A DNA stretch of 64,000 nt from assembly GCA_964291285.2 (NCBI GenBank), contig OZ219785.1, forward strand, positions 1 to 64,000, read 5' to 3'. Positions 34,274 through 55,704 of the stretch are shown here, piece after piece. The position numbers and the translations under genes were made by a program. The notes beneath the pieces were generated by a model. The model saw nothing but the letters and a program-made list of their open reading frames with translations, was not told the DNA's origin and searched no databases. Source of the stretch: Alphaproteobacteria bacterium (GTDB taxonomy: Bacteria > Pseudomonadota > Alphaproteobacteria > Bin95). Within the stretch, counting starts at the first letter, position 1; each line of letters opens with the position of its first letter.

Positions 34274-34702
34274 CGGCTGTGCTTTTTCTCGTTTGCCTCT
34301 CTTGACCTGCCGGCGAACCGGGGCACAGGATACAGTCCTACAATTACCGGAACCGCCGCAAGGGGAGTGAATCACATGATCTTCAGCAAGTTCGAGTCGC
34401 TGCCGGCGACGGCCGATATCGAGTCGCCGGACCGTCGGAGTTTCATGCGGACTGCGGCCGTCGGCGCGGGCGCCGTGGCGGCTGCCGGCGCGGCGATGAC
34501 CGGCGGCGGCGTCCAGGAAGCCAGGGCGGACAGCCACATGACGCCCATCGGCGAGAAGTGGTGGCCGTCGCGCTGGGGCGAGGGCGACCAGGCGGGCGCC
34601 TCCAACTGGATGACGCCGGAGAAGACGCTCGACGCGGTGAAGTGGATCAAGAACGGCAAGATCACCCGCATCGGGCGCGACTACGAGCCGAGCATTCCCT
34701 TT

Positions 34703-35729
34703 CCTGCTTATTCTCAAGGATCATCCTGCAATGAGTAGTTGATATGGGATGGGTTGTGTTCTGACGGCGCTGTGAAGGAAGCGTGGGATCATGGAGTTGA
34801 GTTGGTATCGTCGGTTGTATCGCCATGCGAAGCTGGCGAGGTAGCGTTCGGCATGGTCGGGACCGAGCTTTCGGTAGGTTCCGGCGATGGCGCTCTTGAT
34901 GTTGCCGAGGGTCGTGTTGACCCATTTGAAGGGGGCCATGCGGGCTGCCCGGCGGCCTGAGCCGGTACGGATGGCGCTGTGGCTTGCGGCGATGCCGTCG
35001 AGGGCGTTCCAGCAGTGCAGGGCATCGGTGACGACCTCCGTCCCCGGGGCCAGCCAGCGTTTGGCGCCGCGCGCGATCTCGCGCTTGCGGAAGCCCCTGA
35101 CCGGGACGAGCTTGACCTTGCGCGGAGCCCCTTCGGCGCTGGTCGAGACCGCCGCCACGAAGGGCGTCTTGCCCGGCGCGCCCCGGCCGCGCTTGCCGCC
35201 GGAGCGCGACCCGCCGAGATAGGCGTCGTCCATCTCGACCCGTCCTTCGAGCCGCGTGTCGGCTTCGCGCCGGGCCATCACCGCCATGATCTTCTGCTTC
35301 ATGCTCCAGGCGGTCGGCTGCCTGACCCCGAGGCGGCGACCGAGTTCCACCGACGAAATGCCGTTCTTCGCCGTCACCACAAGGTGGATCGCCGCAAACC
35401 ACAACGTCAGGGGCAGCTTGGTCGAGTGGAAGATCGTCCCCGACGTCACCGAAACCTGCTTCTTGCAGCGGTTGCACTGGTAAAGCCTGCGCCCGGCAAG
35501 AATGCAGTGCCCCCGATGCCCGCAGGAGCCGCACTCGAAACCGTTCGGCCAGCGCAATCGGGCTAGCACCGCCCGGCACTGATCCTCCGTGCCGAACGAC
35601 GCTCGGAACGCATCGTCGCTCAAGCCACGAACACGCGATGCAACCTTGAATGCCATATCCATGACCTCCCGATAACAGAAACCCTTCCAAACCTACAATC
35701 TCACAAGATGACTCTCAAGAATAAGCAGG
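34703..35729 (-). mobile_element. IS1595-family insertion sequence (1027 bp)
   Basis: TIR CCTGCTTATTCT / AGAATAAGCAGG; 8-bp TSD TTCCCTTT at 34695-34702 and 35730-35737. Confidence 0.95.
34721..35662 (-). CDS. IS1595 transposase
   Basis: Zn ribbon CGSC..CNRC, VEMDDAYLGG, VVTD, F.WRYNRR. Confidence 0.93.
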   Translation of the reverse strand: MDMAFKVASRVRGLSDDAFRASFGTEDQCRAVLARLRWPNGFECGSCGHRGHCILAGRRLYQCNRCKKQVSVTSGTIFHSTKLPLTLWFAAIHLVVTAKNGISSVELGRRLGVRQPTAWSMKQKIMAVMARREADTRLEGRVEMDDAYLGGSRSGGKRGRGAPGKTPFVAAVSTSAEGAPRKVKLVPVRGFRKREIARGAKRWLAPGTEVVTDALHCWNALDGIAASHSAIRTGSGRRAARMAPFKWVNTTLGNIKSAIAGTYRKLGPDHAERYLASFAWRYNRRYQLNSMIPRFLHSAVRTQPIPYQLLIAG

Positions 35730-40014: not shown

Positions 40015-42354
40015 GTGGACAAGCACGACATCGCAGGAGAGCCCTTCGCAGCACGGTTTGCCAGGCGGGTGCTCGCGGCCCGCTGGCCGGTCATCCTCGC
40101 CACACTGGTCATCGTTGCCACCGCTTCCGGCGGCATTGCGCTGCTCGAATTCTCTGCGAATTACCGCATCTTTTTCGATGACGACAATCCACAACTTCTG
40201 GCCTTGGAGAAGCTGGAAAACACGTACGGGAAGAACGAAAATGTCGTGTTCCTGGTCGTTCCGGACAACGGTGACGCTACATCTGAAAAGGCTCTCTCGG
40301 CTGCTGTCTGGCTCACAAAGGCTGCATGGAACACGCCATATTCGCGGCGCGTAGATTCGCTTGCCAATTTTCAATACACGACCGCAGAGGGCGATGAGTT
40401 ATATGTGCGGGATCTTATCGATCCGCAGAAAATATCCGAAGCCGAAACGCGCTCGCAAATCCGCGACACCGCCTTGTCCGACCCGCGTATCGCAGGCAGC
40501 ATTCTGGCCCTGAACGGCGATGTCAGCGTTGTAAATGTCACCGTCGAACTGCCCGAGGACGGTCTTCTGGAGGCCGTGGCCGACGTCGCCGAATTCGCCA
40601 GGTCGGCGGCCGTGGAGGCTGAAGAACGGTTCCCCGGCATAGACCTGCGCATCGTCGGCACGGTCATGATCAACCAGACCTTCGTCGAAGCCTCGATCAG
40701 CAGCCAGATGATCTTCCTGCCCGCAAGCCTTCTGCTCATGGCCCTGGTCCTCGGTATCCTGACCCGGGGCTGGGCGGGGGTGGTGGCGACCGGACTGGTC
40801 ATCGTCTTCTCCATTCTGGCGTCTCTGGGGCTTGGCGCGTGGATCGGCCTGCCCTTCTCCCCGCCTATTTCGCCGGCGCCTACCATCGTGCTGATGATCG
40901 TCGTGGCGAACTGCGTGCATCTGCTTGTGGCCTTGCAGCAACGTCTGCGCGCCGGGGATTCCAGGCACGACGCCATTGTCGAATCCATCGCGCTCAACCT
41001 GCATCCGGTGTTCCTGGCAAGCCTGACGACGGCGCTCGGGTTCCTCAGCATGAACTTTTCCGAAGTGCCGCCCTACCGCCATCTCGGCAACTTCGTCGCC
41101 CTGGGCATCTTCACCTCCTTCATTCTCTCCGTCACATTCATGCCGGCAGTGCTTTCGCTTCTCCCCGTCCGCGCGCCCAGGGAACGCCGGCTCCGGGGAC
41201 CCGCAATGAGCCGCATCGCGGATTCCGTGCTGCGCCGCCGGAAGGCGATCTTCTGGGCATGGGTGGTGATCGTGCCCGCCATGGCTCTGGCCATTCCGCG
41301 CAACGAACTCAACGATGTTCTGGTTCATTTCTTCGACAGGAGCGTCGAGTTTCGCCAGGACACCGACTTCATGGACGAGCGTTTGAGCGGCAATACCGGG
41401 CTCGAATACTCGCTCGAAGCTACCGTCGAGGGCGGTGTCACCGCCCCCCTCTTCCTCGCCGAGGTTTCACAGTTCGCCAGTTGGCTCCGCGAGCAACCCT
41501 CCGTGCGCCACGTGGCGGTCATCACCGACACCTTCCGGCAACTCAACAAGAGCATGCACGGCGACGACCCGGCCGCCTACCGGCTTCCGGAAAGCAAGGA
41601 GCTGGCGGCGCAATACCTGCTGCTCTATGAGCTCTCGCTTCCTGAGGGGCTGAACCTGAACAACCAGATCGACAGATCCAGATCGGCCACGCGGGTGACG
41701 ATATCGGCAAAGACGCTCTACTCGCAGGACGTGCTTGACCTGAACGCGCGCGCCGAAGCCTGGCTGAAGGAAAACGCGCCCCATATAGCCAGCGTCAACA
41801 GCACCGGCCCCTCCGCCCTGTTCGCCTATATCGGGCAGCGCAACATCCGCGCCATGCTGGTCGGCACGCTGGTCGTGCTCCTGGCCATATCCGCGATTCT
41901 CCTCTTCGCCCTCAGGTCGCTCAGGCTCGGACTGATAAGCATCGTTCCCAATCTGGTTCCCGCTATACTGGGCTTCGGCGTCTGGGGTTTGACGGTCGGA
42001 CAGGTGGGCCTCTCCCTGTCGGTCGTGGTGGCCATGACCATAGGCATCGTCGTGGACGACACGGTGCATTTCCTCGCCAAATACCGCCGGGCGCGGCGCG
42101 AATACGGCCATGGCCCCGAAGAAGCGGTGCATTACGCCTTCGACACGGCTGGCCGGGCCCTGTTCACGACGACGGTCGTGCTGGTTGCCGGCTTCCTGTT
42201 ACTCCTGTTCTCTCCGTTCGTTCCCACCGCGCAGGTCGGCATCCTGACCGCAATGATTATCGGCTTCGCGCTCATCGCCGACCTGACGCTCCTGCCGGCG
42301 CTGCTGACGGCACTGGACCGGCGGCCGGGGGAACAGGGCGCGCGTTCGTCCTGA
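40015..42354 (+). CDS. MMPL/RND-family transporter
   Basis: Two repeats of periplasmic domain plus TM bundle; LTTALGF, GIVVDDTVHF. Confidence 0.9.
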   Translation: MDKHDIAGEPFAARFARRVLAARWPVILATLVIVATASGGIALLEFSANYRIFFDDDNPQLLALEKLENTYGKNENVVFLVVPDNGDATSEKALSAAVWLTKAAWNTPYSRRVDSLANFQYTTAEGDELYVRDLIDPQKISEAETRSQIRDTALSDPRIAGSILALNGDVSVVNVTVELPEDGLLEAVADVAEFARSAAVEAEERFPGIDLRIVGTVMINQTFVEASISSQMIFLPASLLLMALVLGILTRGWAGVVATGLVIVFSILASLGLGAWIGLPFSPPISPAPTIVLMIVVANCVHLLVALQQRLRAGDSRHDAIVESIALNLHPVFLASLTTALGFLSMNFSEVPPYRHLGNFVALGIFTSFILSVTFMPAVLSLLPVRAPRERRLRGPAMSRIADSVLRRRKAIFWAWVVIVPAMALAIPRNELNDVLVHFFDRSVEFRQDTDFMDERLSGNTGLEYSLEATVEGGVTAPLFLAEVSQFASWLREQPSVRHVAVITDTFRQLNKSMHGDDPAAYRLPESKELAAQYLLLYELSLPEGLNLNNQIDRSRSATRVTISAKTLYSQDVLDLNARAEAWLKENAPHIASVNSTGPSALFAYIGQRNIRAMLVGTLVVLLAISAILLFALRSLRLGLISIVPNLVPAILGFGVWGLTVGQVGLSLSVVVAMTIGIVVDDTVHFLAKYRRARREYGHGPEEAVHYAFDTAGRALFTTTVVLVAGFLLLLFSPFVPTAQVGILTAMIIGFALIADLTLLPALLTALDRRPGEQGARSS

Positions 42355-42530: not shown

Positions 42531-42782
42531 ATGAGAAGTGGCGATGAAATGCTTCAACAGATCGTTGAGAAGTCCGCCCTGGATACGGATTTCAGGCGGC
42601 AGCTTCTCGCGGATCCGAAGACTGCCATCAGCCAGGAATTGGGCATCACGATTCCCGATTCGATGACCATCAAGGTCCATGAGAGCGACATGCAGACGGT
42701 GCATCTCGCGCTGCCGCCGGACCCCAACATTACCGAGGAGCAGCTCGAAGCCATCTCGGCCGGCCTCTGCTGCTGCTGGTAA
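42531..42782 (+). CDS. NHLP (proteusin) RiPP precursor, core LCCCW (SrpE-like)
   Basis: DTDFRRQLLADPKTAI...HLALPP...ITEEQLEAISAG leader followed by LCCCW and stop. Confidence 0.93.
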   Translation: MRSGDEMLQQIVEKSALDTDFRRQLLADPKTAISQELGITIPDSMTIKVHESDMQTVHLALPPDPNITEEQLEAISAGLCCCW

Positions 42783-42884: not shown

Positions 42885-44006
42885 TTATCGCGGGGATGCT
42901 GCCGCGGAAAGCACCATGAACACATAGGCCTTGGCCTGTTCAAGCCGATTTCCGGATATGACCAGCTTTATGTGGTGAATGCCGCGCAACAGCACATAAC
43001 GGCCCGATTTCGCAAAAAGCATTGTCGGCCTGGAAACCCAGTCGGCAAGCGCTGCAAGTTTCCCGGAAACTACAATGTCCTCCTGGCTCAGGGCCTTCAA
43101 AAACGGATCCCAGTCGGTCAGGCCGTCGAGCCAGTAGCGGGAGTCCTTCGTGTATCTCTGCTTGACAATGAGCGTAAGGCCGAGCGTCGGACCGAGACCG
43201 TCTTCGCGCACATCGACATTCACTCCTGTCCTGACAATATTCGCGCGTTCCCGGAAGCGGGCAATCACGGAGCCGACAGCGGAGACCTCGCCCGGCCAAC
43301 CGGTGATTTCAAGATAGGAACACAGGTCCTGCCGCGACTTGAAGCCCATGACCGCCAGGCGGATCGAACGGGAGCGGGACGGGAATACGCCGAATGAATC
43401 CATGCGCGTATCTTCGGGCTGCGCCAGGTACGCCCGTTCGACGGTCTTCCGCTCATTGTCCGTCATCTCCCAGCCAATGCTGGAAAGGAGCGCGTCAACC
43501 ACCATGGCGACGTCACCCGCCTGGCCTGAGGCGCCGACGATCGGGCGTTCGCCGGGCCGCAGGAACATCGCCGGAAGCGGCGTCTCGCCATCCCGCGCCG
43601 GGGCGATGTCATATTCCAGCATCAGCTTGCGGCCGACGATTTCGCGCAAGGGCGAGTCTTCCGCATCCATCTGTCCGAACAGTTGCATGACCGCTCTTGC
43701 GGTCCTGTCCGTCTCGTCGGTCCGTGCGCGCTCCAGGAAAAATGCCGCCGGGCCGGTTCCGCTCGCCAGGGAGACGCCGAAATCCGCCTTCGGCCTCGGT
43801 TCGTGGAGCGGCAGTTCGAAGCCGAACGGAAGGGCGCCCATCGTGACGGGAAGCTTCCGGGCGCATTCGAGTACGAGCTCCCATTCCGGACCTCCGACAA
43901 GCACCGGCGAAACCCTGTTTCGAAAATGCCCGAGCAGGTCGCCCATCGAGCCGCCCTCTTCGGCGAGACGGTCCTGGGTAAGCGTGACGGCTTCGTCGAT
44001 ATCCAT
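42885..44006 (-). CDS. Hypothetical RiPP-cluster protein (possible PT-barrel prenyltransferase-like)
   Basis: 373 aa, GGAGG RBS, directly after YcaO; FGFE, LEYD, HHIKL...AKAY motifs; fold unverified. Confidence 0.6.
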   Translation of the reverse strand: MDIDEAVTLTQDRLAEEGGSMGDLLGHFRNRVSPVLVGGPEWELVLECARKLPVTMGALPFGFELPLHEPRPKADFGVSLASGTGPAAFFLERARTDETDRTARAVMQLFGQMDAEDSPLREIVGRKLMLEYDIAPARDGETPLPAMFLRPGERPIVGASGQAGDVAMVVDALLSSIGWEMTDNERKTVERAYLAQPEDTRMDSFGVFPSRSRSIRLAVMGFKSRQDLCSYLEITGWPGEVSAVGSVIARFRERANIVRTGVNVDVREDGLGPTLGLTLIVKQRYTKDSRYWLDGLTDWDPFLKALSQEDIVVSGKLAALADWVSRPTMLFAKSGRYVLLRGIHHIKLVISGNRLEQAKAYVFMVLSAAASPR

Positions 44007-44015
44007 CTTGCCTCC

Positions 44016-46334
44016 TCACAAGATGACAGGGGCGGGATTCAGATCGGCTTCGGCCAGAGGATATGTGCGGCGGCCCATTCCGACAGGCGCGTCATACAGG
44101 CGCCCCGGCGCGAACCTTGCCCAGAAATGGCGCATGCCCGGCACGACGACCCGCACAACGGGCATGCCGATATCGGGCCGGGTCTGATCCAGCACCAGGA
44201 ATTCCATGCCGCTCGCTTCGACGAGCGCACGGCAATGCTCGACATCTTCGCGCGTGTCCGCCGCTTCGACCGCCGGATACTGCGAAGCCTTGCGGAGCGG
44301 CTCGTCCGCCGCCGGCGCCAGCCAGGAGCACTCGGCGAGTCGAGCGGTCCTCCACCACCGGAGCGCCAGCGGATCGTCGATCATGGGCCGGCCGTCGCTC
44401 CTCCCCGGACGCGGCAGCCAGGTAAGGCACTGGTTCAATTCGCAAATCGCGCGCAAGGCCGCCACGCGCGGGTCGGCATGGGCGCCGGCGCTGTAGATGA
44501 TGTCCTCCGTCGGGGCGTCCGGCCTGCGCGAGAGCGCAACGAAGGCGGGAATGCCGAGATCGGAAGTCACGTCGAGCATCCACAGCTCGCGCTCATAGCC
44601 GGCGTAGCGGCCCGCGGCCGATGCGAGATAGTCGTCGTCGAAGCTGGAAAGATCGACCGCCGGCACCCGCAGACGGTTGTACCACCAGATGGCGAAGGCG
44701 TCCCGCTCCGCCAGTTCGTAGAAGCCCTGCAGGATCGCCTCTTCCAGGGTGTTGCCGGCGGCGCAGCCGTTGGAGTCGGCGATCGGGTCCACCGGGCCGC
44801 GCAGTTCGGGCGGCATGCTGTAGAGCATCGATGTCGGCAGATAGCGGTGGCGCTGCTGCGTCAGCGACCACACCGGAGTCCAGTCGATTTCGGCTTCGGG
44901 GTCGAGGCGCGGCGGCACGATATTGTAGGGATGTCCTTTCGCGTTAATGCTTCCCGCGTTGTCCAGTTGACTGTCGCTGAACAGCTGCACCGCGTTCGGA
45001 TGGACTGCCTCGTCTTCCATGGCGAAGTCGATGAAGCGCCTGCGGCGGCGGATCTCATCTCCGGCCCAGGCGCCCGAATGGCGTTCGATCGCTTCGCAGA
45101 GGGCGCTGACCTCGGACTGCTCTCTTGTGCTGCCCTTGCCGGCGCTCTTGCTGCGCAGGCTGCGCCTGAGCGAACTCAGGCTCCGGCTTCTCATGCCGTG
45201 GTTGCTGCCGGCCCAATAGACATGCAGCCAGGGGTCGGTCTCATCGGTCGTGCGCTTGAGCCAGGTCACGACGCCGCTCACCGGGCTGACAAGGTGGCGG
45301 TATTTCGCCAGGGTCGCTTCCGGCGCTGCACTGCGCGCGCCGCCGCTGTTGCGATGGGTTTTGGGACTTGCCTTCAGAGACAGCGGAACCGGTGGCCGAT
45401 CCGGGCGATGCAACGCTTCCTCACCGCAGGCAAGGCATTGCGGCCGGCGCATGACCCGGTGCTGCGAGCTTGCGAATGTGCCGGTATTCATCGCGACTGC
45501 GTGGTCGTGAATCGGGGCCGCCTCGTCCAGAACCAGCCATTTGACGATCTCGGCCGCGATCAGCCCGTACAGCCCTTCCAGAACTGCGGGCTCGGCCGCG
45601 AACGGCTTGAACGCAGCCTCTTCGCCCGCAAAGTTGCGCAGGAAACTGTGGACCTCCTTGTGGCCGCGCAGGCGCTGCGCCAGACAGGCCCAGCAGGGTC
45701 CCTGCCTGTCCGCGCGAAAGACGGGGCCGAACAGCGCCTCCATGCCTCGAGGCCGCAGCAGCGTCCACGCCGCTCCCGCCTCGAGCCGGCGTCGATTCAC
45801 GTCTTCAAGGCGCGCTTCGAGATAGTCGTCGCAGACGATGACGGTGAGTTCGGGCCCGTCAGCCCCGACACCGGCGCCGGCCTCTTCCAGACGCCGGATC
45901 AGCCGGCCGTCGTCTCCTTCCACCGCGATGCGCGACGCCGCCAGCCGTTGCTCCGCCCAGCGGGGCGAGGCGCCGAGCGACGACCAGTAGGCCGCCCGGT
46001 ATCGGTCCATGCCATGATCGCCGGAGACGACATAACCCCTGGCGGAAAGCGAGCCGACCGCCGCGACAATATCGGCGGCGGTGTGGACGCCCTCAAGGGC
46101 GGCGGCGATCTCGTCCTGCGGGCGCCGGCCGTCGAGCAGCGGCAGCAGATCGCAATAAAGCCTGCCGTGCAACAGGGTATTGAACGACTCGGAAACCAGA
46201 AGCGCCTGTTGTTCGCCGATTTCGTGGAACTGCAGGTGCGGGGCAAGCGCGGGAAGCCTGACGGCGCCCCGGTCCGCAGGAGTCGTTCTGGTCAATATCC
46301 CCTGCCGGGGATTCCTGCCTGTCTGCGCTGGCAT
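44016..46334 (-). CDS. Fused RRE / E1-like / YcaO cyclodehydratase (TOMM, SrpC-like)
   Basis: GPCWACL, RRPQCLAC, SAGKG, CEAIER, SNGCAAGNTLEEAILQGFYELAERD, Pro-rich C-terminus NPAPVIL. Confidence 0.95.
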   Translation of the reverse strand: MPAQTGRNPRQGILTRTTPADRGAVRLPALAPHLQFHEIGEQQALLVSESFNTLLHGRLYCDLLPLLDGRRPQDEIAAALEGVHTAADIVAAVGSLSARGYVVSGDHGMDRYRAAYWSSLGASPRWAEQRLAASRIAVEGDDGRLIRRLEEAGAGVGADGPELTVIVCDDYLEARLEDVNRRRLEAGAAWTLLRPRGMEALFGPVFRADRQGPCWACLAQRLRGHKEVHSFLRNFAGEEAAFKPFAAEPAVLEGLYGLIAAEIVKWLVLDEAAPIHDHAVAMNTGTFASSQHRVMRRPQCLACGEEALHRPDRPPVPLSLKASPKTHRNSGGARSAAPEATLAKYRHLVSPVSGVVTWLKRTTDETDPWLHVYWAGSNHGMRSRSLSSLRRSLRSKSAGKGSTREQSEVSALCEAIERHSGAWAGDEIRRRRRFIDFAMEDEAVHPNAVQLFSDSQLDNAGSINAKGHPYNIVPPRLDPEAEIDWTPVWSLTQQRHRYLPTSMLYSMPPELRGPVDPIADSNGCAAGNTLEEAILQGFYELAERDAFAIWWYNRLRVPAVDLSSFDDDYLASAAGRYAGYERELWMLDVTSDLGIPAFVALSRRPDAPTEDIIYSAGAHADPRVAALRAICELNQCLTWLPRPGRSDGRPMIDDPLALRWWRTARLAECSWLAPAADEPLRKASQYPAVEAADTREDVEHCRALVEASGMEFLVLDQTRPDIGMPVVRVVVPGMRHFWARFAPGRLYDAPVGMGRRTYPLAEADLNPAPVIL

Positions 46335-46366
46335 CCAGGATTTCCGCTCCCGACCGGTCGGCGCCT

Positions 46367-48763
46367 TCATGCACCCGAATGGAGCGTATCGATCCCGGCG
46401 GCAGCGCGGGAGGCGGTTTCGGCCGCCGCCGCGGCCAGCGTATCGAAATCCTCGTGCCCGCAAGCACCGGCAACGAGGGACCTGACCTTCTGCCCCGCCG
46501 CGGCTGCGTCAAATCCGTCCTCGCCGACAAGGCATGTGATGCCCTGCAAATCCCGCCACATGGCCGCGGCCTGCGCCAGCGGCTCGGCGCCGGCGGCATC
46601 GAGCACCGCTGCAGCACTCGGGGCCGGATCGTCGAGGCTTGGTGCGGCCTGCGTCAGCTGCAGGACCCGCGCGGCCCTCTCGACGTCCTCCAGCCCGCCG
46701 CGCATCCGGGCATATGCGGACAGGCCCGTTTCGTCGGGACGCCCCACCGGCTCGCGCAATCCGGCGATCAGAGATTCGTTCGAGCCGCATTCGGCCAGCA
46801 GCCGGCGCTGCGCCTCGGCGAAGCGGCGGCCGATTTCGGCATCGCCGCACTCGAAGATGCAGCGCGCCCTGGTGAGGACGGGAATTTCGCCGACGGCAGG
46901 ACTCCCGTAGCGCTCCGCCAGATCGGAAAGCGGCAGCGCATGAAGGGAGTCGAAGCCGGGCGGAATCGGCGAGAACAACAGGCTGTCCTTCGCCAGCTCG
47001 GTCACGGCCTTCCGGAAACCCCGGCACAGACGTTCGTTTTCTCCGAACTTCCAGCTGTCATTGACAAACAGCATGTCGACCGCAACGCCGGGATAAACGT
47101 CCCGGCTGGCGAGATCGCCCAGAAAAACGGCAGCGACGCCGCCCGCGCGCAACGGTCCGGACCGGTCGACAAAATCCGCGACCACGGCTGCAAGCACGGT
47201 TGAAATCGACGCTTCGGCAAGATTGGACAGCGCCGTTCTCGCCTCGCTTGGAGACAGATTCCCGCGCACGACATGCATGCCGATCTGGAACGCCTTGTCG
47301 TTCGACCAGTTCCGCACGATCTCCGCCGACTCCCCTGCATCGGCCGCCGGCAATTCGGCGATCAGCTCCTTCATTTCCTGGACGCCCATTTCGCGCGTCC
47401 AGTAGAGCCTCGTGAGCCCGCGCCGCGCGACCGCCTCATATCGCTCGTCGGGCCCGAACCCTTTCGGCAGGTCGAGATCGGTGAACTCCCGGTCCTGCAG
47501 GTTGTCGAGGAGCTCCGAATGGCGTTCGATCCATGCGGCGAGCCGCGGGGCGGCGCCGAAGATTTCGACTATCGCATCGAAGGCGTCCGGCCGCGCCGCG
47601 GAAACCGCGCTGTCATAGGCGCTCCAGTCATCGATATCGGGATAGAAATGCCTGCGCCATTCATCCACCAGCGGGTCCATCTTGGCAAACCAGCGCTTCG
47701 GCCGCAGCACCATGTTCATCATGTCGCCATAGGTTCCCGGCAATTCCGGCGATTCATCAGAACCGCGAACCTGCAACAGCGGATAGTGCCGCGCGGCCAT
47801 GGCGTGATGATCCGCGTGGCGCTGCATGTTGAAGAACATCCAGTTGCTGAACTTCCAGTCGGCGCTCCAGGAGTGGCGCGGCATCGCCTTTTCCCAACGG
47901 CCGTTCGGCAGCCGGACCCGGCGCAGACCGTAGTGCTGGAAGTAGTTGCTGATCTTCATGGAGAAGACGCAACACAGGCCGAGAAAGGCGAAAACCGGCA
48001 CTGCCCAGATTCCGCCCATCCAGAACACGATTCCATACCAGAACCCGACAGTTATGCCATAGCGCCAGAACGGGTTGCTGTAATGCCAAATGGAAAGTTG
48101 GCGTCGGGCCAGCCGTTCGCCCACAACTTTCCAGGAATTGGCGAGGTTGCTCACAACTTCCTTCGGGAAATACTTCCAGAAACTTTCGCCCTTCGGCGCG
48201 GACCCCACATCATGCGGCGTGCCCACCATGGCATGGTGTACATATACATGCTCCGTCGCATATTGCGGGTAGGACGCCGAGGAAAGCAGAAATTCTCCAA
48301 GCCGGCGTTCCCAGACAGCGCGCCGGTGAACAAGTTCGTGTCCGACCACAAATACCGCTTGTGCCTCCATGGTCAAAATGATCGCCAGCAACACGCATTC
48401 CCAGATTGCCAATTGATCTGCGACAAGGATTTGCCACATGCCGAAAATGAGAACCGGCGGCCAGAGAACCGCCCAGATCCAGACCGGGAGATTATGCCAT
48501 AGCAGATGGCGTTCCGATGTTTTTGACGGATCCATACTGCGTCCGTCGCGACCCAGAGCCCGATCGAGCGGTCCTGCAACGCTCATGAAAAGAAATGCGG
48601 GCAACAACCACCAGCCGCCATAGACCGCAGCCAAAATAATCAACGGGAAAATACCCAATGGCAGGTAATGCGGAAGGGCGTTGAGGATCGACGGTTCGAT
48701 CTGTCGCGCCAAGGCGGCCCCGCCGGGGCCCGAGCTCACATCTGCGGAGGCATCCTGCGGCAT
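46367..48763 (-). CDS. AlkB-type membrane diiron monooxygenase fused to a GlnE-like nucleotidyltransferase-fold domain
   Basis: HELVH, EHVYVHH, NYFQHYG, QRHADHH, PELPGTY; C-terminal LSNLAEA..., LGDLASRDVYPGVAVDMLFV, RGGLEDVE. Confidence 0.8.
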   Translation of the reverse strand: MPQDASADVSSGPGGAALARQIEPSILNALPHYLPLGIFPLIILAAVYGGWWLLPAFLFMSVAGPLDRALGRDGRSMDPSKTSERHLLWHNLPVWIWAVLWPPVLIFGMWQILVADQLAIWECVLLAIILTMEAQAVFVVGHELVHRRAVWERRLGEFLLSSASYPQYATEHVYVHHAMVGTPHDVGSAPKGESFWKYFPKEVVSNLANSWKVVGERLARRQLSIWHYSNPFWRYGITVGFWYGIVFWMGGIWAVPVFAFLGLCCVFSMKISNYFQHYGLRRVRLPNGRWEKAMPRHSWSADWKFSNWMFFNMQRHADHHAMAARHYPLLQVRGSDESPELPGTYGDMMNMVLRPKRWFAKMDPLVDEWRRHFYPDIDDWSAYDSAVSAARPDAFDAIVEIFGAAPRLAAWIERHSELLDNLQDREFTDLDLPKGFGPDERYEAVARRGLTRLYWTREMGVQEMKELIAELPAADAGESAEIVRNWSNDKAFQIGMHVVRGNLSPSEARTALSNLAEASISTVLAAVVADFVDRSGPLRAGGVAAVFLGDLASRDVYPGVAVDMLFVNDSWKFGENERLCRGFRKAVTELAKDSLLFSPIPPGFDSLHALPLSDLAERYGSPAVGEIPVLTRARCIFECGDAEIGRRFAEAQRRLLAECGSNESLIAGLREPVGRPDETGLSAYARMRGGLEDVERAARVLQLTQAAPSLDDPAPSAAAVLDAAGAEPLAQAAAMWRDLQGITCLVGEDGFDAAAAGQKVRSLVAGACGHEDFDTLAAAAAETASRAAAGIDTLHSGA

Positions 48764-48839
48764 GGCGGCTTCCCTAGCGAACCAAGGCTCCCTTGCATAC
48801 CGGTTTATATACCATCGGGCAGGACAAACCGCAAATGCC

Positions 48840-50141
48840 TCAGGCGTTCAAGACCTTGAGGAGGCATTCCAGAGCCTCGATGCAAAACGCAGAGGTCACG
48901 GCTTCGGAGCCGTGTCCTATCTGCCCTACGGTCCCCCACTTCAGCGACTGGTCTCCGAACGCCAGGAGTTCCTGCCAGCTACCGTCATCCCGTTGCGAAT
49001 TTGCGAATCTTTCCAACTGGCGTTTTCCGTCGATACGTTCAAGGCTTCCAATATTGTAAAGCGCCGACACTGCCTGCGCCGCCTGAAGAATATTGACAAA
49101 CTCTCCTTTATCGTCGCGCAAACCCAGAATGCGTTCAGCAAGAATCGGGCGTAATTTGTTGAGGGCAGGCCGCGTGCGAGCCACCGCACGCGCGGTTGCA
49201 TAGTAGATCGCCACTTCGTCGGGATACCATTTGGACGAATCCTCGACCCGGCCTTCGGTAATCAATGTTTCCAGCCATCGTTGAGCGTCCCTTGTTTCAG
49301 GGCGGTCACCCAGATAGGCAATGACATTCGCATTGACGACAGGATCGGCTTCGAGGCGGAAACGCGACACAACGTCAGGTTCGTCGCCGGCCAGAACCCA
49401 AGTCATGAAACGACCGTGCTCGTCTCGGTTTTCCAATATCCCGGGCACGTTTCTTTCCAGAAGAATCCAGGGATGATCTTCGATGACAAGCGAACAGAGT
49501 GTCGTGCTGTCCAGATCCTGGGGCAGATGGCGGTAGTAGCGCCACAATCCGGGATATTCGATGGTGTCGCCGATATAGGCCTTGGCGGCATTGTACAGGG
49601 CCCTGGCCCGCGCATCGCCGCAACGCGCCAGGGCAAGCGCGTAGAAAGCCGAAACGAAGGGAGGTCTCTCGAAATGCCGCGGAATATCCGGGTTGGCCGT
49701 GTTGAACCGGATGCAGTGCCAGGCCCCGTTTTCGTCGATAGCGGATTCCAGGAAGGCGAGACCGCGGCGGATGCTTTCTCTGCCCGCGGCGGCCAGCGCC
49801 TCGGGGCCGGCGGCGCCTGTTCCGGCCCGCGCCCCTTCGGGCAGGGGGGGACGGCGCGGCGGCGCGGGGTCGTGAAGCGTCCTGCGAAGAAAAGCGAGCG
49901 AAGTCGCGCCGGTTCTCGCTTCCTCCCGCTCGGCCGCGGTGAATTTGCCGCGCGGCGGCAGGACGAGATGCGTCGCCGCGTAGGTTTCCTCATGCACATG
50001 AATTTCATGGCCCTCGGCCGGCGTCACGCCGAGTTCTTCTTCGATGGTCTTTCTGGGGTCAGCGAGAAGGCGGGCGCGCAAACCGTGGTCGTCGCCGGCC
50101 CGCGACATGAGGTGTTCCACCGCGTCAACGGGCTTCTTCAT
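48840..50141 (-). CDS. NHLP-leader domain fused to a monodomain class II terpene cyclase / prenyltransferase-like alpha-barrel
   Basis: N-terminus collinear with the precursor leader (LRARLLADPRKTIEEELG...HLVLPP); PQDLDST, DPVVNANVIAYLG, QW motif SQRDDGSW. Confidence 0.75.
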   Translation of the reverse strand: MKKPVDAVEHLMSRAGDDHGLRARLLADPRKTIEEELGVTPAEGHEIHVHEETYAATHLVLPPRGKFTAAEREEARTGATSLAFLRRTLHDPAPPRRPPLPEGARAGTGAAGPEALAAAGRESIRRGLAFLESAIDENGAWHCIRFNTANPDIPRHFERPPFVSAFYALALARCGDARARALYNAAKAYIGDTIEYPGLWRYYRHLPQDLDSTTLCSLVIEDHPWILLERNVPGILENRDEHGRFMTWVLAGDEPDVVSRFRLEADPVVNANVIAYLGDRPETRDAQRWLETLITEGRVEDSSKWYPDEVAIYYATARAVARTRPALNKLRPILAERILGLRDDKGEFVNILQAAQAVSALYNIGSLERIDGKRQLERFANSQRDDGSWQELLAFGDQSLKWGTVGQIGHGSEAVTSAFCIEALECLLKVLNA

Positions 50142-50181: not shown

Positions 50182-52134
50182 TCAGGCGATTTGCCGCCTG
50201 ACCAGCTCCCTGAATACCCCGTCGACCTCCATGAGCTCGTTGAAGGAGCCGCTTTGCACGATCTTCCCGGCCTGCAGCACATAGATGCGGTCGGCCTGCT
50301 CCAGGGTCGATAGGCGGTGGGCGATGACAATCCGGGTGGAGGTAAGCGCGGTGAGGTTTTGCATCACCCGGGCCTGGCTTTCGTTGTCCAGCCAGTTGGT
50401 GGCCTCGTCGAACAGCATTACCCGCGGGCTGCCGATAACCGAACGGGCGATCGTGATGCGCTGCCCCTCGCCGCCTGACAGGACGGTCCCGCTGGTGCCA
50501 ACCATGGTCATCATGCCCATGGGCATGCCCCTGATCTGGTCCTCCACTTCGGCGACCCGGACCGCTGACCACACTTCGTCGTTCGTCACGTCCTCGCGAT
50601 GGCTGACCAGGTTGTCCCAGAGGTCATGGGGGTGGAGGCCGACCGATTGCGGCACGGCGCCGATTTTCCGGCGCAGTTGCTTCAGGTTCAGATGCCTGAG
50701 ATCGCGTCCGTCGTAATACACCGCACCGGCGGTCGGCCTGTCGACTCCAAGGGCAAGCCGGAACAGGGTGCTCTTGCCCGAGCCGGACTCGCCGGCAATC
50801 GCGATGAAATCGCCGGCACGGGCATGGATCGTGACATCGTCGAGAACCAGCGGGCCGTCCGGGTCGTAGCGGAAGGAAATGCGATCGAACAGGACGTCGC
50901 CGCCCAGATATTCGACCGGCTCCCCTTCCACCTCCGTATCGGGAATTGCGGCCAGCAGGGGGCGCATCTGATCGAACGCCGGGAGCATGGCGGCCATGGC
51001 GCTGAAAGACTCCCCGAGCCGGCCGACCGCGGACTGGAAGGCGATGAAGACGGTGTAAACGACGAGAAAATCGCCGATCGGAAGGGTCCGGTCACCCACC
51101 GTGGCCACAGCGAAGAGCAATACCCCGCCGGCAAGAAAGGGGAGCGCGGCGCCGAACGCCCGCGAATGCGCCTCAAGCGCATCCAGCTCGATCTCCGCGC
51201 GTTTCTGCACGCGATAGTCCCGCGCCCAGATAGCGAAGGCCGACCCTTCCGCGTTTTCCACGCGCAGCTTGGCGATACCGCCCACGATCTGGAACAGCCG
51301 CCCGGATACGCGACGCGCTGCGTCGATCATCCGCCCGTAAGGCGAGACCTGGCGCAACCCAAGGACTGTCGCGACCAGCAGCGAAGCCAGGCTGAAGACG
51401 AGGGCGATGATGCCGAGTGCGGCATCGTAGAAGAAGATGACAGCAAAGACCGGCAGCAGAAAAACGATCGACAACAGGCTGTCGGCCACGACTCCCTGTA
51501 CGCCGTCCCGGAGATTCTGGAACGTCATGCCCGACATGGCCAGATCGCCGGCCGGACGGCGGTGCAGCACGCCTGGCGGGAGGCGCATGAGGCGGTCCCA
51601 GAAAGCAGCTTCGACCCGCGACGCCGAGCGTCCCTCAAGGCGCATCATTGCCGAGCTTTGAAGCAGGTGCAGCAACGCGCCGAGCAAGCCGAACCCCGCG
51701 ACCGCCAGGGCCACGATGTAGAGCACTGCGGCGCTTCCGCCCGCCGCTATGTGATTCGCGGCGAAACCGAGCGCAATTGCCGGCAGCAGCTTGATCAGGC
51801 CGCCCGGAAGCCCGGCAGCCACCAGCCGCGCCAGATCCCCGGCCGATCCATGCAGGGCGATTTTCAGCAGGTCTGCCGGTTTCACGTTCCCCGACGGCAA
51901 CGGCCGGTAGAACATCCAGGCTTCCTCGGCCAGCGCGCCGGCGCGCTCCGCCGTCATCCGGACACTGCGCTTGCTGACCGGGTCCACTTCCCGGTAGCGC
52001 CCGAACATTCCCGGCAGCAGCGCTACGGGCTGGCCGTCCTCGGCGCGGAAGCCCAGCATCGCGTTGCTGTCGCCCCGCCACCAGTCTCCCTCGCCCTTGA
52101 ACCGCACGCGCCGGGCGCGCACACCCGACGCATC
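50182..52134 (-). pseudogene. NHLM bacteriocin-system ABC transporter (permease + ATPase), 5'-truncated
   Basis: DASGVRARRV, WDRLMRLP, GESGSGKST, LSGGEGQR, FDEAT; no start or RBS, and similarity is lost upstream of about 52135. Confidence 0.8.
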
Positions 52135-52322
52135 CTTGATGCAAAGAGCGAGGCCCGGCCGGCCTGCATCGGTCGGCAGTTTTCCGTTGCGTGACAGACG
52201 GTTGGGCCTGACCCGGCCTCTGACCGCGGTTTCGCGCGCGGGTCGCGTTGTCCGTTCAAGAGCGCCGTTCCGTTCCCCCGGGACGGACGGCGCCCGAGGG
52301 AACAGACAACGGAGACACGCCC

Positions 52323-53459
52323 ATGCGCATCCATGCCCCCGTCAACGAGCGGACGGTCCGCCGCACCTTCAGGGAGAAGAAACCCGGACGATACGGCCTG
52401 ACCGTCATCGACAGGGACCTGCCCGCCTTCGGCTTCACCGTCGCCGGGAACGGAACGAAGACCTTCTTCGTCCGGACCTCACGCCAGTTCGGCGCGCCCA
52501 GGGCGATCCTCGGCACGACCGACGACATGACCGCCGCCGAGGCGAGGGAGAAGGCCATTGCCGCCATCGCCGAAGCCAAAGCCGACCGCGAGACCGGGCC
52601 GCTGTTCGCCGACTTCGCGGCCGACTTCATGCGCCGCCAGGGGCGGCGCTGGAAACCCTCCACGAGGAAGGCCAACGCCCATCTGGTCGAGCGCGGCCTC
52701 GTGCCCTTCTTCGGCGCGATGCCCGTCGCGAAGATCGACCGCGCCGATGTGCGGCGCTGGTTCGATTCCCTCAGCGGCGCCCCCGGCAGCGCCAACCGGA
52801 CCCTGCCGGTGCTCTCGGTGATGATGCGGCAGGCGGAGCTATGGGACCTTCGCCCGCAGGGCTCCAACCCCTGCCGCAACATGCGGCGCTACAGGACGGC
52901 GCCGCGCGAGCGGTTCCTGTCCCTGGACGAGTTGAAGCGCCTCGGCTTCGTCCTCGACCATGCCGAGGACCGGCAGGCCGCCGCCGCCATCCGCCTGCTG
53001 CTGTTCACCGGCGCCCGGTCGTCCGAGATCGCCAGCCTGCAATGGGACTGGATACGGGACACCCGCGCGGTGTTGCCGGACTCCAAGACCGGACCGAAGG
53101 CGCTCCAGCTTCCCCCGCCCGCGCGGGCCGTCCTGAATGGCCTGCCGCGCGAGGGACGCTTCGTCTTCCCGAACGGGAAGGGCGACGGCCCGATGACCGA
53201 CCTCGGCCTGCGCTGGCAGAAGCTGCGCGGTCTCGCCGGGCTGGACGATGTGCGCATCCACGACTGCCGGCATACCTTCGCCTCCCATGCCGTGATGAGC
53301 GGCCTCGACCTCTACACCGTCGGCCGCCTGCTCGGCCATGCCGATACCGCCTCCACCGAACGCTACGCCCATCTCGCCGACGAGCATGTCCGCGAGGCGG
53401 CCGGGCGCATCTCCGGCATCGTCCACGGCGCCATGACCGGGAAGGAAAGCGGGCGATGA
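52323..53459 (+). CDS. Tyrosine recombinase/integrase 1
   Basis: Arm-like N-terminus; TGARSSE, DSKTG, IHDCRH, LLGH, ERYAH. Confidence 0.92.
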   Translation: MRIHAPVNERTVRRTFREKKPGRYGLTVIDRDLPAFGFTVAGNGTKTFFVRTSRQFGAPRAILGTTDDMTAAEAREKAIAAIAEAKADRETGPLFADFAADFMRRQGRRWKPSTRKANAHLVERGLVPFFGAMPVAKIDRADVRRWFDSLSGAPGSANRTLPVLSVMMRQAELWDLRPQGSNPCRNMRRYRTAPRERFLSLDELKRLGFVLDHAEDRQAAAAIRLLLFTGARSSEIASLQWDWIRDTRAVLPDSKTGPKALQLPPPARAVLNGLPREGRFVFPNGKGDGPMTDLGLRWQKLRGLAGLDDVRIHDCRHTFASHAVMSGLDLYTVGRLLGHADTASTERYAHLADEHVREAAGRISGIVHGAMTGKESGR

Positions 53460-54805
53460 GCGGCGGCAGGCATCGTGTCCGGCTCACCGTGAAGGCCGTC
53501 GCCGCCGCCAAGCCGGCGGAACGGGAATACACCCTGTGGGACAATCTGCTGGCGCATTTCGGGGTCAGGGTGCAGCCCTCCGGCGTCCGGTCCTGGATCG
53601 TCCAGACCCGCGTCCGGGGACGCATGCGCAAGATCACCCTCGGGCGCTTCCCCGAACTGCCTCTCGACGCGGCGCGCCGGGAAGGCGCAGCCGTGCTCGC
53701 CCGCCTGTGGGGCGGCGAGGACGTGACGCCGCCGCGCAAGGAGAAGGCGCCGCTGTTCCGGGACTTCGCCGCCCGTTACCGCTCGCGGCGGAAACACCGC
53801 TGGAAGCCGTCCTCGCTCAAGACCTTCGATAGCTACATGAAGAACCGCCTGATGCCGCATTTCGGCAGGCTCCGGCTCGACGCCATCGACCATGCGCGGG
53901 TCTCGGCATGGTTCGACGCCGCCAGCGCGGACAGGCCCGGCGCCGCCAACCGCGCCTTCGAGATACTCCGCGCCATGCTCGGGACGGCCCGGCAGTGGGG
54001 CGACATCGGCGAGCATGTCCCCGATGCCTGCGCCAACATCGTGAAGAACCCCCGCAAGCCTGTCGCGCGTTACCTCAGCCGCGAAGAGCTGGAGCGTCTC
54101 GGCGCGGTGCTCGACCGCCACCGGAAGGAACACCCCTGGCCGGTGGCGGCCATCCGGCTGCTGACGCTCACCGGGGCGCGGCTCTCCGAAGTCATCAACC
54201 TCAGGTGGGACGAGATCGGAGAGTTGACCGGAGACGGCGCGAGCGCGCGCATCGAAGACTCCAAGACCGGGCCGCGCACCATCTGGCTCGGACCCGAAGC
54301 GGCAAGGCTGGTCGAGGCGCTGCCGCGACCGGATGGCCGGGAGCGGGTGTTCCCCGAGACCCTCACACCGGCAAGGCTCTACACCTTCTGGTGCGGTATC
54401 CGCGACGAGGCGGGGCTTCCGGGCCTTCGCATCCACGACTGCCGCCACACCTGGGCCTCGCAGGGCGTCATGAACGGCGTCGGGCTCACCACCGTCGGAC
54501 GGCTGCTCGGACACCGCAAGCGGGAGACCACCGCGATCTACGCCCATCTCGACGATGGCGCGCTGCGGGTCGCCGCCGCCCAGGCCGCCGCCGTCATCGC
54601 GCGAGCGATGGGGTACAGGGCGGAGGCGCCTCCGCTGCCGGACGAGGCGGCGCACGGCGATGCATCGGCCGACATACCTGTGCCGTCCAGGCCCGGTGCG
54701 TCGGCATCACCGGAGGGAGGGCGATCCTCCCTCCGGGTCAGGACCGGGGATCCGGAGCGATCGGATGCAAGCATCCGCCGTAGACCGCAGGGTATCGGGA
54801 TCTGA
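53456..54805 (+). CDS. Tyrosine recombinase/integrase 2
   Basis: ATGA overlap with integrase 1; arm domain; TGARLSE, DSKTG, IHDCRH, LLGH, IYAH. Confidence 0.92.
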   Translation: MSGGRHRVRLTVKAVAAAKPAEREYTLWDNLLAHFGVRVQPSGVRSWIVQTRVRGRMRKITLGRFPELPLDAARREGAAVLARLWGGEDVTPPRKEKAPLFRDFAARYRSRRKHRWKPSSLKTFDSYMKNRLMPHFGRLRLDAIDHARVSAWFDAASADRPGAANRAFEILRAMLGTARQWGDIGEHVPDACANIVKNPRKPVARYLSREELERLGAVLDRHRKEHPWPVAAIRLLTLTGARLSEVINLRWDEIGELTGDGASARIEDSKTGPRTIWLGPEAARLVEALPRPDGRERVFPETLTPARLYTFWCGIRDEAGLPGLRIHDCRHTWASQGVMNGVGLTTVGRLLGHRKRETTAIYAHLDDGALRVAAAQAAAVIARAMGYRAEAPPLPDEAAHGDASADIPVPSRPGASASPEGGRSSLRVRTGDPERSDASIRRRPQGIGI

Positions 54806-54959
54806 GTTTGCGGCGGGCATGGAGCCGATCGGGGACCCTCAGGCGGGGTCTTTGCCGTGAAAATGGTTGGGGATCGGGCACACAAAAACCCCTCCCCGCC
54901 AAAGCACTGCTTCCGAGGCGTCCGATACTCGCCATCTGCGGCGCCCGTCTTGCGGATCG

Positions 54960-55704
54960 TGAATCGAAGCCGCTGGACCGCATCGGCGAGGCCGCCATCC
55001 GGCGCTGGTTCGAGCGATACAGCCGCACCGCGCCGGGCAACGCCAATCCCTGCCTTGCCCGTCTGCGGCAGATACTCAACTTCGCCCTCGCCTGCGGCCA
55101 CATCGAGGTCAATCCCGTCGGGCGCATCGCCCCGAACCGCCGCACGGCGCTCACGCGGTTCCTGTCCCGGGAGGAACTCGCACGCCTCCATGCCGCCCTG
55201 GACGCGCAGACCCGGAAGAGCGCGCGGCAGCAGGCCGACATCGTCCGCCTCCTGCTGCTGACCGGCTGCCGCAGAAGCGAGATCACGGGCCTGCGATGGT
55301 CCGAGGTCCGCGACGACGGGTTGGCGCTCACCGATGCCAAGACGAGGCCGAGGACGGTCCCGCTCGGCAGCCGGGCCCGGGCCATTCTCGACCGGCAGCC
55401 GCGCGCGGGCAGCCCGTTCGTGTTTCCCTCGCCGTGCGACCCCGCCCGCCCGCGCAGCCCGGACCTGCCGCTCTGGTACCGCGTCAGACGCGAAGCCGGC
55501 ATCGGGGATGTCCGCCTTCATGATCTCCGGCATACCATGGCGAGCCATGCCGTCATGAACGGCGTGCCCGTCCCGGTGGTCTCCCGCCTGCTCGGGCATT
55601 CCAATGTGAGGATGACGCTGCGCTATGCCCATCTCGCCGACCGCGAGATCGAGGCCGCCGCGGAACGCGTCGGGCAGGCCATGAGCGCCGTGCTGGAGGC
55701 TTGA
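54960..55704 (+). CDS. Tyrosine recombinase 3, lacking the N-terminal arm domain (possibly truncated; start uncertain)
   Basis: TGCRRSE, DAKT, LHDLRH, LLGH, LRYAH; similarity to integrases 1 and 2 begins at about KPLDRI. Confidence 0.75.

Follow-up and report, generated by a model that had tools for sequence, protein, structure and literature searches.

The window considered here is a stretch of 64,000 nucleotides from an alphaproteobacterium (GenBank assembly GCA_964291285.2, contig OZ219785.1, positions 1 to 64,000), and its source genome is called G000 below. On the minus strand of this window lies a gene for a 798-residue protein (P0001; Table 1) in which an AlkB-type membrane diiron oxygenase is joined to an apparently dead half of the adenylyltransferase GlnE. 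The gene begins with an ATG behind a purine-rich stretch, 76 nucleotides past the stop codon of the upstream gene, and its TGA stop codon and the start ATG of the YcaO gene that follows share the letters ATGA, indicating that the two genes share one operon. The surrounding locus is recognizable as the srp cluster of sponge symbionts (srp, sponge-derived RiPP proteusin; RiPP, a peptide synthesized ribosomally and modified after translation), with LCCCW as the precursor core. This cluster was reportedly first described by Nguyen et al. in JACS in 2021. The likeness to it consists of a precursor with a nitrile hydratase leader peptide (NHLP) and an LCCCW core, an adjacent YcaO gene, and a SrpI-like halogenase encoded in the genome; a difference is that the cluster in G000 is split across two contigs.

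In the accessible parts of two sources, the srp gene products described are the precursor SrpE with its LCCCW core, the YcaO protein SrpC and the brominase SrpI (PMC10286304; components and core also in bioRxiv 10.1101/2023.06.09.544420), and the fusion gene is an addition to these three. The final natural product is not stated in the accessible literature. No desaturase or hydroxylase is found in the accessible parts of the srp-related PMC10858898, PMC12455567 and bioRxiv 10.1101/2023.06.09.544420, a coverage outside which the original srp description lies, and no desaturase or monooxygenase in that of PMC12537861. A literature search for AlkB/GlnE fusions returned unrelated papers only. The fusion gene appears to be uncharacterised in the accessible literature, the original 2021 srp description aside. 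What was already known is the srp cluster; new here are the wider reuse of the GlnE-derived module, the lack of rubredoxin, the purifying selection on an apparently dead module, its apparent single origin from an adenylyltransferase (AT) half, and the ABBA fold of a neighbouring 373-residue protein.

Table 1. Positions and strands of the fusion gene, its domains and motifs, its neighbours in the window, and its paralogues elsewhere in G000.
Feature	Position	Strand	Evidence
AlkB / GlnE-like fusion gene, 798 residues (P0001)	46367..48763	-	Open reading frame and translation
AlkB-type membrane diiron monooxygenase domain, residues 1-384	47612..48763	-	PF00487, 8f6t match, fold
His box 1, HELVH (H142, H146)	48326..48340	-	Aligned to HELGH of 8f6t; invariant in 59 sequences
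His box 2, EHVYVHH (E171, H172, H176, H177)	48233..48253	-	8f6t alignment and family alignment
NYFQHYGL motif (H277)	47924..47947	-	8f6t alignment and family alignment
His box 3, RHADHH (H316, H319, H320)	47804..47821	-	8f6t alignment and family alignment
GlnE adenylyltransferase-half-like pseudo-nucleotidyltransferase module, residues 385-798 and stop codon	46367..47611	-	PRK14108, 3k7d profile, fold, dN/dS
Degenerate nucleotidyltransferase motif LGDLASRDVYPGVAVDMLFV, residues 548-567	47063..47122	-	Aligns to GlnE GKLGGWELGYSSDLDLIF
Winged helix-turn-helix / E1-like / YcaO cyclodehydratase (SrpC type)	44016..46370	-	Pfam YcaO E 1.9e-94; TIGR03604/TIGR03882
373-residue ABBA-fold prenyltransferase-like protein (P0124)	42885..44006	-	AlphaFold2 model and Foldseek
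SrpE-type NHLP precursor ending AISAG-LCCCW	42531..42782	+	TIGR03793 E 2.6e-19; translation
433-residue protein (P0122), NHLP-leader-like N-terminus and terpene-cyclase/prenyltransferase-like alpha/alpha toroid	48840..50141	-	Weak evidence
MMPL/HAE3-type resistance-nodulation-division transporter	40015..42354	+	Pfam MMPL E 2.3e-35; TIGR00921, HpnN-like
NHLM ABC2 exporter gene, 3' two-thirds, 5' end cut	50182..52182	-	TIGR03797 E 1.3e-192
Tyrosine recombinase trio	52248-53459, 53531-54556, 54808-55704		
AlkB/GlnE-like paralogue (L084)	G000:C1:1037231-1039726		
AlkB/GlnE-like paralogue (L085)	G000:C3:1868240-1870735		

A single gene for a two-domain protein

That two genes had been joined by faulty gene calling was considered and rejected: the 120 listed homologues of the fusion are 784–824 residues long, most of them 798, at 74–92% identity, and 16 orthologues carry no stop codon. 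The whole protein was modelled by AlphaFold2 with a predicted local distance difference test (pLDDT) score of 88.6 and a predicted template-modelling (pTM) score of 0.84, and the latter suggests that the AlkB and GlnE-like domains are held in a fixed arrangement. G+C content is 0.59–0.67 across 38.7–50.2 kb of the window, against about 0.70 in the flanks. A sponge metagenome run contains 0.46 of the sampled words of the fusion gene. In addition, contig pieces 85–95% like both halves of the gene were found in the RNA-library runs X22 and X23 from two studies, for example 947 nucleotides over 47840–48774 and 646 nucleotides over 46665–47309; these give only a weak hint of orthologue expression, as contigs are no proof of transcription and the libraries may contain carried-over DNA. 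The accessible part of bioRxiv 10.1101/2023.06.09.544420 reports high transcription, in sponges and across bacterial phyla, for RiPP clusters that are probably srp.

The AlkB-type domain and its electron supply

On both sequence comparison and predicted structure, the N-terminal part of 384 residues is a membrane-embedded diiron oxygenase of the AlkB type, and an intact one. Pfam FA_desaturase (PF00487) is matched over residues 121–330 (E 3.5e-26). A phmmer search of PDB sequences aligned residues 52–383 with the AlkB-AlkG protein of Fontimonas thermophila (8f6t, E 1.1e-47) and also matched the fusion to FtAlkB 8sbb (E 4.6e-37). In the phmmer alignment, HELVHR, EHVYVHH, NYFQHYGL and RHADHH pair with the AlkB His boxes, and the family signature of HExxH, EHxxxHH, NYxxHYG and RHxDHH, with its nine histidines for the diiron site, is complete. 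These nine histidines are invariant in 59 aligned members with identities down to 29%. The model of residues 22–387 was superimposed on 8f6t with a VIA-align Z score of 40.6 and a root-mean-square deviation of 2.5 Å over 354 residues (Foldseek E 6.9e-16).

Rubredoxin is the normal electron donor of AlkB enzymes. No redox partner is encoded near the fusion gene, and rubredoxin (PF00301) was not found anywhere in G000 (marker-gene completeness 100%), nor in four of the five further srp genomes searched (five of six when G000 is counted). The 8f6t alignment stops at fusion residue 383, equivalent to residue 376 of the 471-residue AlkB-AlkG chain, so the GlnE relic starts at about the point where AlkG follows in the Fontimonas fusion. 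The two proteins are thus alike in fold (Z 40.6 for 8f6t and 38.8 for 8sbb, with a structural identity of 25–29%), in having all His boxes, and in carrying a soluble domain joined at the same C-terminal point. However, the fused part is a rubredoxin of about 60 residues in Fontimonas, whereas here it is a presumably dead GlnE half of 414 residues, and no rubredoxin gene was found in the genome. Also unlike AlkB-AlkG, the fusion belongs to a RiPP operon instead of one for alkane degradation.

A GlnE half without its catalytic motifs

The last 414 residues are recognizable as a complete GlnE half, made up of a helical unit, a nucleotidyltransferase core and a second helical unit. Pfam GlnE (PF03710) scored the whole fusion protein at 23.6 bits (E 4e-5), slightly below its 24-bit cut-off, and residues 385–798 alone at 26.3 bits. 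The NCBIfam GlnE model PRK14108 was matched with E 2.3e-19 over model positions 634–728 of 986, corresponding to the AT half. A HMMER scan of 1.84 billion representatives with residues 385–798 gave 419 matches at E<=1e-3; beyond the fusion family, true GlnE proteins match over their C-terminal halves (residues ~570–1000). Against the PDB, family profiles matched the E. coli GlnE adenylylation domain 3k7d with E 4.1e-32 (A2) and 8.1e-24 (A5), and the GlnE N-terminal domain 1v4a with E 3e-18. The model gave Z scores of 29.5 for 1v4a (over residues 376–796), 27.9 for 3k7d (Foldseek, VIA-align) and 18.0 for the GlnE-like AMPylase DrrA.

The module is homologous to GlnE (3k7d, 1v4a) across its helical, nucleotidyltransferase and helical units, and nests among AT halves. 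It differs in being a single half, in its motif losses and in its attachment to a membrane enzyme; true GlnE is made of two tandem halves, adenylyl-removing (AR) and AT, with two PF03710 stretches in about 950–1000 residues. G000 moreover retains an ordinary 1005-residue GlnE elsewhere (L086). The Legionella protein DrrA/SidM (6yx5, 3nku) shares the GlnE-type nucleotidyltransferase fold but is an active AMPylase of Rab1, whereas the fusion module is without the catalytic motifs.

The GKLGG turn, the DxD motif and a third carboxylate are the catalytic elements of GlnE-type nucleotidyltransferases. In the alignment of the family hidden Markov model (HMM) to 3k7d, GlnE GKLGGWELGYSSDLDLIF stands opposite the family consensus lGdlAsrevapgteldllfV, and GlnE EVDARLRPSG stands opposite a four-residue deletion. 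A string quoted in an earlier note on this DNA, DLASRDVYPGVAVD, comprises residues 550–563 and pairs with GKLGGWE...SSDLDL of GlnE. The site of the fusion accordingly reads LGDLAS and AVD: the G-G turn is replaced by L-A-S and the first Asp of DxD by Ala, D563 is the sole Asp kept, and the strand of the third carboxylate (VDARLRP in GlnE) is deleted. Among 24 aligned modules, the first carboxylate varies and the second (D or E) is kept in all, and the third-carboxylate strand is gone in every AlkB- or AcrB-fused module. With the G-G turn, the first Asp and this strand lost, nucleotide transfer is not to be expected, and the GlnE-like module appears to be catalytically dead.

Several claims that the earlier note had made from the letters of the DNA agree with these results. 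It had described the AlkB His boxes as intact, the C-terminus as GlnE-like and its nucleotidyltransferase motif as lost, and each of these descriptions was correct. The structure model that it had proposed as a check returned an AlkB fold and a GlnE-half fold. Its remark that no redox partner was visible holds for the neighbourhood, and for rubredoxin the search extends it to the whole of G000.

Conservation and origin of the module

Despite its lost motifs, the GlnE-like module is conserved. Mean column identity over 121 family members is 0.83 for the C-domain versus 0.88 for the N-domain; in the same members, the conservation of GDLASR is 98% or more. The median ratio of nonsynonymous to synonymous substitution rates (dN/dS), over 136 pairs of 17 gap-free orthologues, is 0.275 for the C-domain and 0.115 for the N-domain, values that place the module under purifying selection. 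A decaying pseudogene domain was rejected on the ratio of 0.275, and this ratio together with the conserved GDLASR motif indicates that the module is retained as functional.

The origin of the module was followed in a quick maximum-likelihood tree, rooted at the midpoint, in which support is given by the Shimodaira–Hasegawa-like approximate likelihood ratio test (SH-aLRT) only and for which a careful search is unfinished. Every fused module fell in one group (SH-aLRT 99), which splits into an AcrB-fused lineage (100) and an AlkB-fused lineage (97). This group nests among GlnE AT halves, beside the AT half of the GlnE protein of G000 itself, with the AR halves outside. In this quick tree, the fused modules appear to share a single origin from a GlnE AT half.

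Distribution of the fusion and its reuse outside srp loci

A word-based homology search gave 793 relatives of the fusion protein, and the few named hosts among the 120 listed homologues are metagenome-assembled genomes (MAGs) of Acidobacteria and of Alpha-, Gamma- and Deltaproteobacteria. A search of one-genome-per-species contigs gave 209 stretches with a relative. Those ranked as the best 80, at 63–93% identity and all from MAGs, belong to at least Alpha- and Gammaproteobacteria, Acidobacteriota, Nitrospinota, Binatia and Thermodesulfobacteriota. Neighbouring genes were counted in these best 80 loci within ±10 kb or to the contig end. YcaO was found in 78, directly adjacent to the fusion in 77, and in the two loci without it the contig ends <140 nucleotides from the match. 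The 373-residue gene and the toroid gene (Table 1) were each present in 74 of the 80, the ABC2 exporter gene in 70, SrpE in 67, a halogenase in 43 and the MMPL transporter in 36. By eye, 63 of the 67 SrpE orthologues end in LCCCW, and the rest in LCCSW (twice), LSCCW and LSCCA. Canonical srp loci add LolA-like and DUF1302-like genes and the halogenase.

The same module was also found outside srp loci. G000 holds two more AlkB/GlnE-like genes, 33% identical to the srp fusion. In both cases a sulfotransferase gene stands immediately upstream, and the gene of an AcrB-type pump is oriented divergently; for one of them, an adenosine 5'-phosphosulfate (APS) kinase gene lies 5 kb off. A sulfotransferase requires a hydroxyl acceptor, and the sulfotransferase-coupled paralogues therefore fit an alcohol-forming chemistry. 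These loci suggest a pathway in which a hydrophobic compound may be hydroxylated and then sulfated. The module further occurs at the C-terminus of AcrB-type resistance-nodulation-division (RND) pumps, full-length in P0183 (1525 residues) and P0186 (1521 residues) and also in fragments. The genome of the srp locus L007 encodes one AcrB-GlnE pump, on G402:C57 (L132:8965-13929). HlyD-type genes and a further AcrB gene flank this pump gene, and CysQ-like Inositol_P, sulfatase and SIS/CBS genes follow it.

An HMM of the module was also run against a sample of 400 alphaproteobacterial genomes. Besides ordinary GlnE, fusions were found in four other genomes, which have different settings. In G748, YcaO adjoins the fusion, and in G768, YcaO and the 373-residue gene are on the contig of the fusion, 16 kb away. 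The order in G658 (L244) is PAPS_reduct, sulfotransferase, fusion, penicillin amidase, MatE and sulfotransferase. Near the AlkB/GlnE-like paralogues of G000 and G658 lie AcrB, penicillin amidase and MatE genes, and the set of sulfotransferase, fusion, penicillin amidase and MatE genes is thereby seen again in a genome of another family. The G470 fusion is 56% identical and keeps LGDLAS, and its neighbours are CoA-transferase, TRAP, TetR and hydrolase genes; this genome is 96% complete, and neither YcaO nor the 373-residue protein had a match in it. A 400-genome phylum sample queried with the paralogue P0125 gave, beyond G000 itself, nothing but matches to plain AlkB (query residues to ~400). 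A metagenome scan with an alignment of the diverged fusions keyed on the His boxes kept 80 loci, all 80 of them plain AlkBs of about 400 residues, and is thus uninformative on fusion contexts.

The earlier note had placed the fusion inside a RiPP operon, which is real, as the single 798-residue reading frame, the srp-type neighbours and the ATGA overlap indicate. It had also named a fusion found mostly outside RiPP loci as a result that would speak against its reading. Here the outcome was mixed: YcaO accompanies nearly all of the best 80 loci, but fusions also lie outside RiPP loci, as shown by the sulfotransferase-linked paralogues, the G470 orphan and the AcrB fusions. These three settings show that the GlnE-like module is not a RiPP-specific device.

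Prenyltransferase-like and toroid neighbours

The product of the 373-residue gene, P0124, has no Pfam match. Its AlphaFold2 model (pLDDT 89.5, pTM 0.89) gave 70 Foldseek matches in the PDB at E<=1e-3, and all listed ones are ABBA aromatic prenyltransferases, including EpzP, 6-DMATS, IptA, PriB, CymD and the RiPP enzyme LimF. The ESM Atlas had given a Trp_DMAT cluster (0.90), a lead only, which the fold search followed. P0124 has the same fold as 6-DMATS, IptA, PriB, CymD and LimF (Foldseek E ~1e-5, probability 1.0). Several such ABBA enzymes prenylate Trp indoles or RiPP peptides, and P0124 is 9–17% identical to them. A relationship between P0124 and the 373-residue sulfotransferase beside a paralogue of the fusion was rejected on comparison, the same length being coincidental.

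The toroid protein P0122 appears to bring a "leader" of its own. Its first ~75 residues resemble the NHLP leader, being 31% identical to SrpE by tblastn, with a sub-cut-off TIGR03793 score of 33.5 bits. For the toroid itself, SQHop_cyclase_C was matched with E 0.0045, and the ESM Atlas gave SQHop_cyclase_C / AstC-like (0.94), again a lead only.

Proposed function and alternative readings

What does a GlnE relic do on an AlkB enzyme in a RiPP cluster? Our preferred explanation, which as a whole we hold to be about evenly poised, is that the reading frame is one functional gene of the srp operon, that its AlkB domain adds a hydroxyl to a prenyl or lipid group of the srp peptide, and that the GlnE relic serves in the cytoplasm as an adaptor or sensor that is not catalytic. 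The LCCCW core would become a tris-thiazoline/bromo-Trp pentapeptide, to which P0124 would attach a prenyl chain. The AlkB domain would then act on a hydrophobic group, most likely that prenyl chain, and hydroxylate it at a terminal or allylic carbon, and the MMPL, LolA-like and DUF1302-like export genes would provide for carrying the product out. On the cytoplasmic face, the relic may be the docking site of a soluble partner enzyme or of an electron donor other than rubredoxin, or may bind a nucleotide or regulator. A lipidated product fits the ABBA-fold neighbour and the lipid-type exporters (MMPL, LolA-like, DUF1302-like), and on these predictions the earlier note's proposal of a lipid or prenyl moiety as the substrate is plausible. 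The presence of the same module on sulfotransferase-linked AlkB paralogues and on AcrB pumps suggests that its role is general to the membrane protein and not RiPP-specific.

Some observations weigh against this explanation. The module keeps a GGLxDVE motif and the second Asp/Glu of DxD, so nucleotide binding or residual activity is still possible. A SagB-type/flavin azoline dehydrogenase was found neither in the window nor in the canonical loci L008 and L012, and thiazolines might therefore be what the diiron domain oxidises instead. The assignment of P0124 as a prenyltransferase comes from its fold, with TM scores of 0.4–0.53 at an identity of about 10–14%, and that of the P0122 toroid is weak. 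The adaptor role of the module is deduced from its position and conservation, and the scaffold or sensor role put forward in the earlier note is an inference as well.

The lack of an azoline dehydrogenase is the starting point of one alternative, that the diiron domain oxidises the peptide itself, either by dehydrogenation of thiazoline to thiazole or on a Leu or Trp side chain. Desaturases belong to the FA_desaturase superfamily, and the published product is given only as azol(in)e-containing in the accessible part of bioRxiv 10.1101/2023.06.09.544420. Nevertheless, the His-box pattern and the fold are those of AlkB proper, the sulfotransferase-coupled paralogues fit the formation of an alcohol, and the cluster contains a prenyltransferase-like gene and lipid-type exporters; this alternative is considered unlikely. 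The motifs kept by the module would fit a further one, in which it remains an active nucleotidyltransferase that AMPylates the hydroxyl made by AlkB. Pairing a hydroxylase with a subsequent O-nucleotidyltransferase would be logical, the GlnE-half fold is complete, a carboxylate persists in every case, and E-x-E or D-x-E is retained by some paralogues. With the first Asp replaced by Ala and the G-G turn lost in the srp type, and the third-carboxylate strand deleted in all aligned AlkB and AcrB fusions, such an activity is highly improbable.

Two other alternatives concern what the module binds. It might be a leader-recognition domain that holds SrpE by its NHLP leader and passes the core on to the AlkB site, as RiPP tailoring enzymes generally need a leader-binding surface, the fusion protein is without a RiPP recognition element (RRE), and the srp-type module has its own conserved motif, GDLASR. 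NHLP leaders are moreover read in several distinct ways, according to the accessible parts of PMC12455567 and PMC12537861. A complex prediction of the full-length fusion with SrpE scored 0.00, below the mark, and carries no weight either way. However, the module also occurs beside sulfotransferases, on AcrB pumps and in the 56% identical G470 orphan that keeps LGDLAS in a genome without YcaO or the 373-residue protein, and these non-RiPP contexts make leader recognition unlikely as its main role; we regard it as quite improbable. The module might instead be no docking scaffold but a ligand sensor that gates the membrane protein, responding to an adenine nucleotide such as 3'-phosphoadenosine 5'-phosphosulfate (PAPS), 3'-phosphoadenosine 5'-phosphate (PAP) or ATP, or to glutamine or PII. 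In GlnE, glutamine and PII regulate the AT domain. The module keeps the helical GGLxDVE motif and one DxD carboxylate, and three non-srp contexts contain sulfate-ester genes, namely a sulfotransferase with APS kinase, PAPS_reduct with two sulfotransferases, and CysQ-like Inositol_P with a sulfatase after an AcrB fusion. This support comes from three loci only, though, and the srp locus is without a sulfation gene; the phosphate-binding G-G turn and the RLRP strand are also lost, so that a sensor of this kind has a small probability.

Returning to the preferred explanation, the AlkB-type oxygenase, the ABBA prenyltransferase-like protein and the lipid-type exporters point to a lipidated, oxidised end product, and if this is true, the srp product could escape searches designed for a plain brominated azoline peptide. 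An AlkB enzyme that apparently works without rubredoxin, with a conserved pseudo-nucleotidyltransferase in its place, makes the supply and regulation of AlkB testable. That RND pumps carry the GlnE-like module too suggests that a nitrogen-regulation enzyme gave rise to a unit for membrane tethering or sensing. A bolder and rather doubtful extension is that the GlnE-AT pseudo-enzyme is a portable cytoplasmic adaptor, used on AlkB and AcrB in sponge symbionts for assemblies that hydroxylate, decorate and export. Such an adaptor would recruit a prenyltransferase, a sulfotransferase or a non-rubredoxin donor, or would sense an adenine nucleotide or nitrogen signal. If so, the srp product would be an undescribed hydroxylated, prenylated tris-thiazoline bromotryptophan lipopeptide, and the fusions would represent a rubredoxin-independent class of AlkB enzymes.

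The split cluster and mobile elements in G000

On residue mapping, the srp cluster of G000 is split inside the ABC2 exporter gene: residues 320–988 of the L001 orthologue map to 50185–52182 of the window and residues 1–346 to contig C3. No SrpI-type flavin-dependent Trp halogenase was found in the window. The part on C3 (L087, G000:C3:369267-376737) holds the 5' third of ABC2 together with genes for ABC1 (C39), a 190-residue protein, LolA-like and DUF1302-like proteins and a Trp halogenase, the last being an orthologue of the L008 halogenase at 83% identity. In the window, the break in ABC2 abuts three tyrosine-recombinase genes (52248–55704). The first recombinase has at least 12 copies at 97–100% amino acid identity on all five contigs, and after each comes another recombinase match, so this three-integrase element looks as if it is actively spreading. 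A short-read contig of run X1 stops at 52157, just before the recombinase trio.

A second, diverged srp-like locus (L088, G000:C1:268000-287000), in which neither YcaO nor the AlkB fusion was found, has a precursor with the core WCCCGT (L088:9647-9901, minus). Its genes include an ABBA-like gene (49% to P0124) and those for a methyltransferase, MMPL, a Mutator transposase, ABC2, ABC1 and HlyD. Back in the window, two transposase genes, of the DDE_Tnp_1 and IS1595 types, lie upstream of the srp island on the minus strand (30022-31821 and 34721-35662), with the reading frame of a CobW-like GTPase between them (33269-34717).

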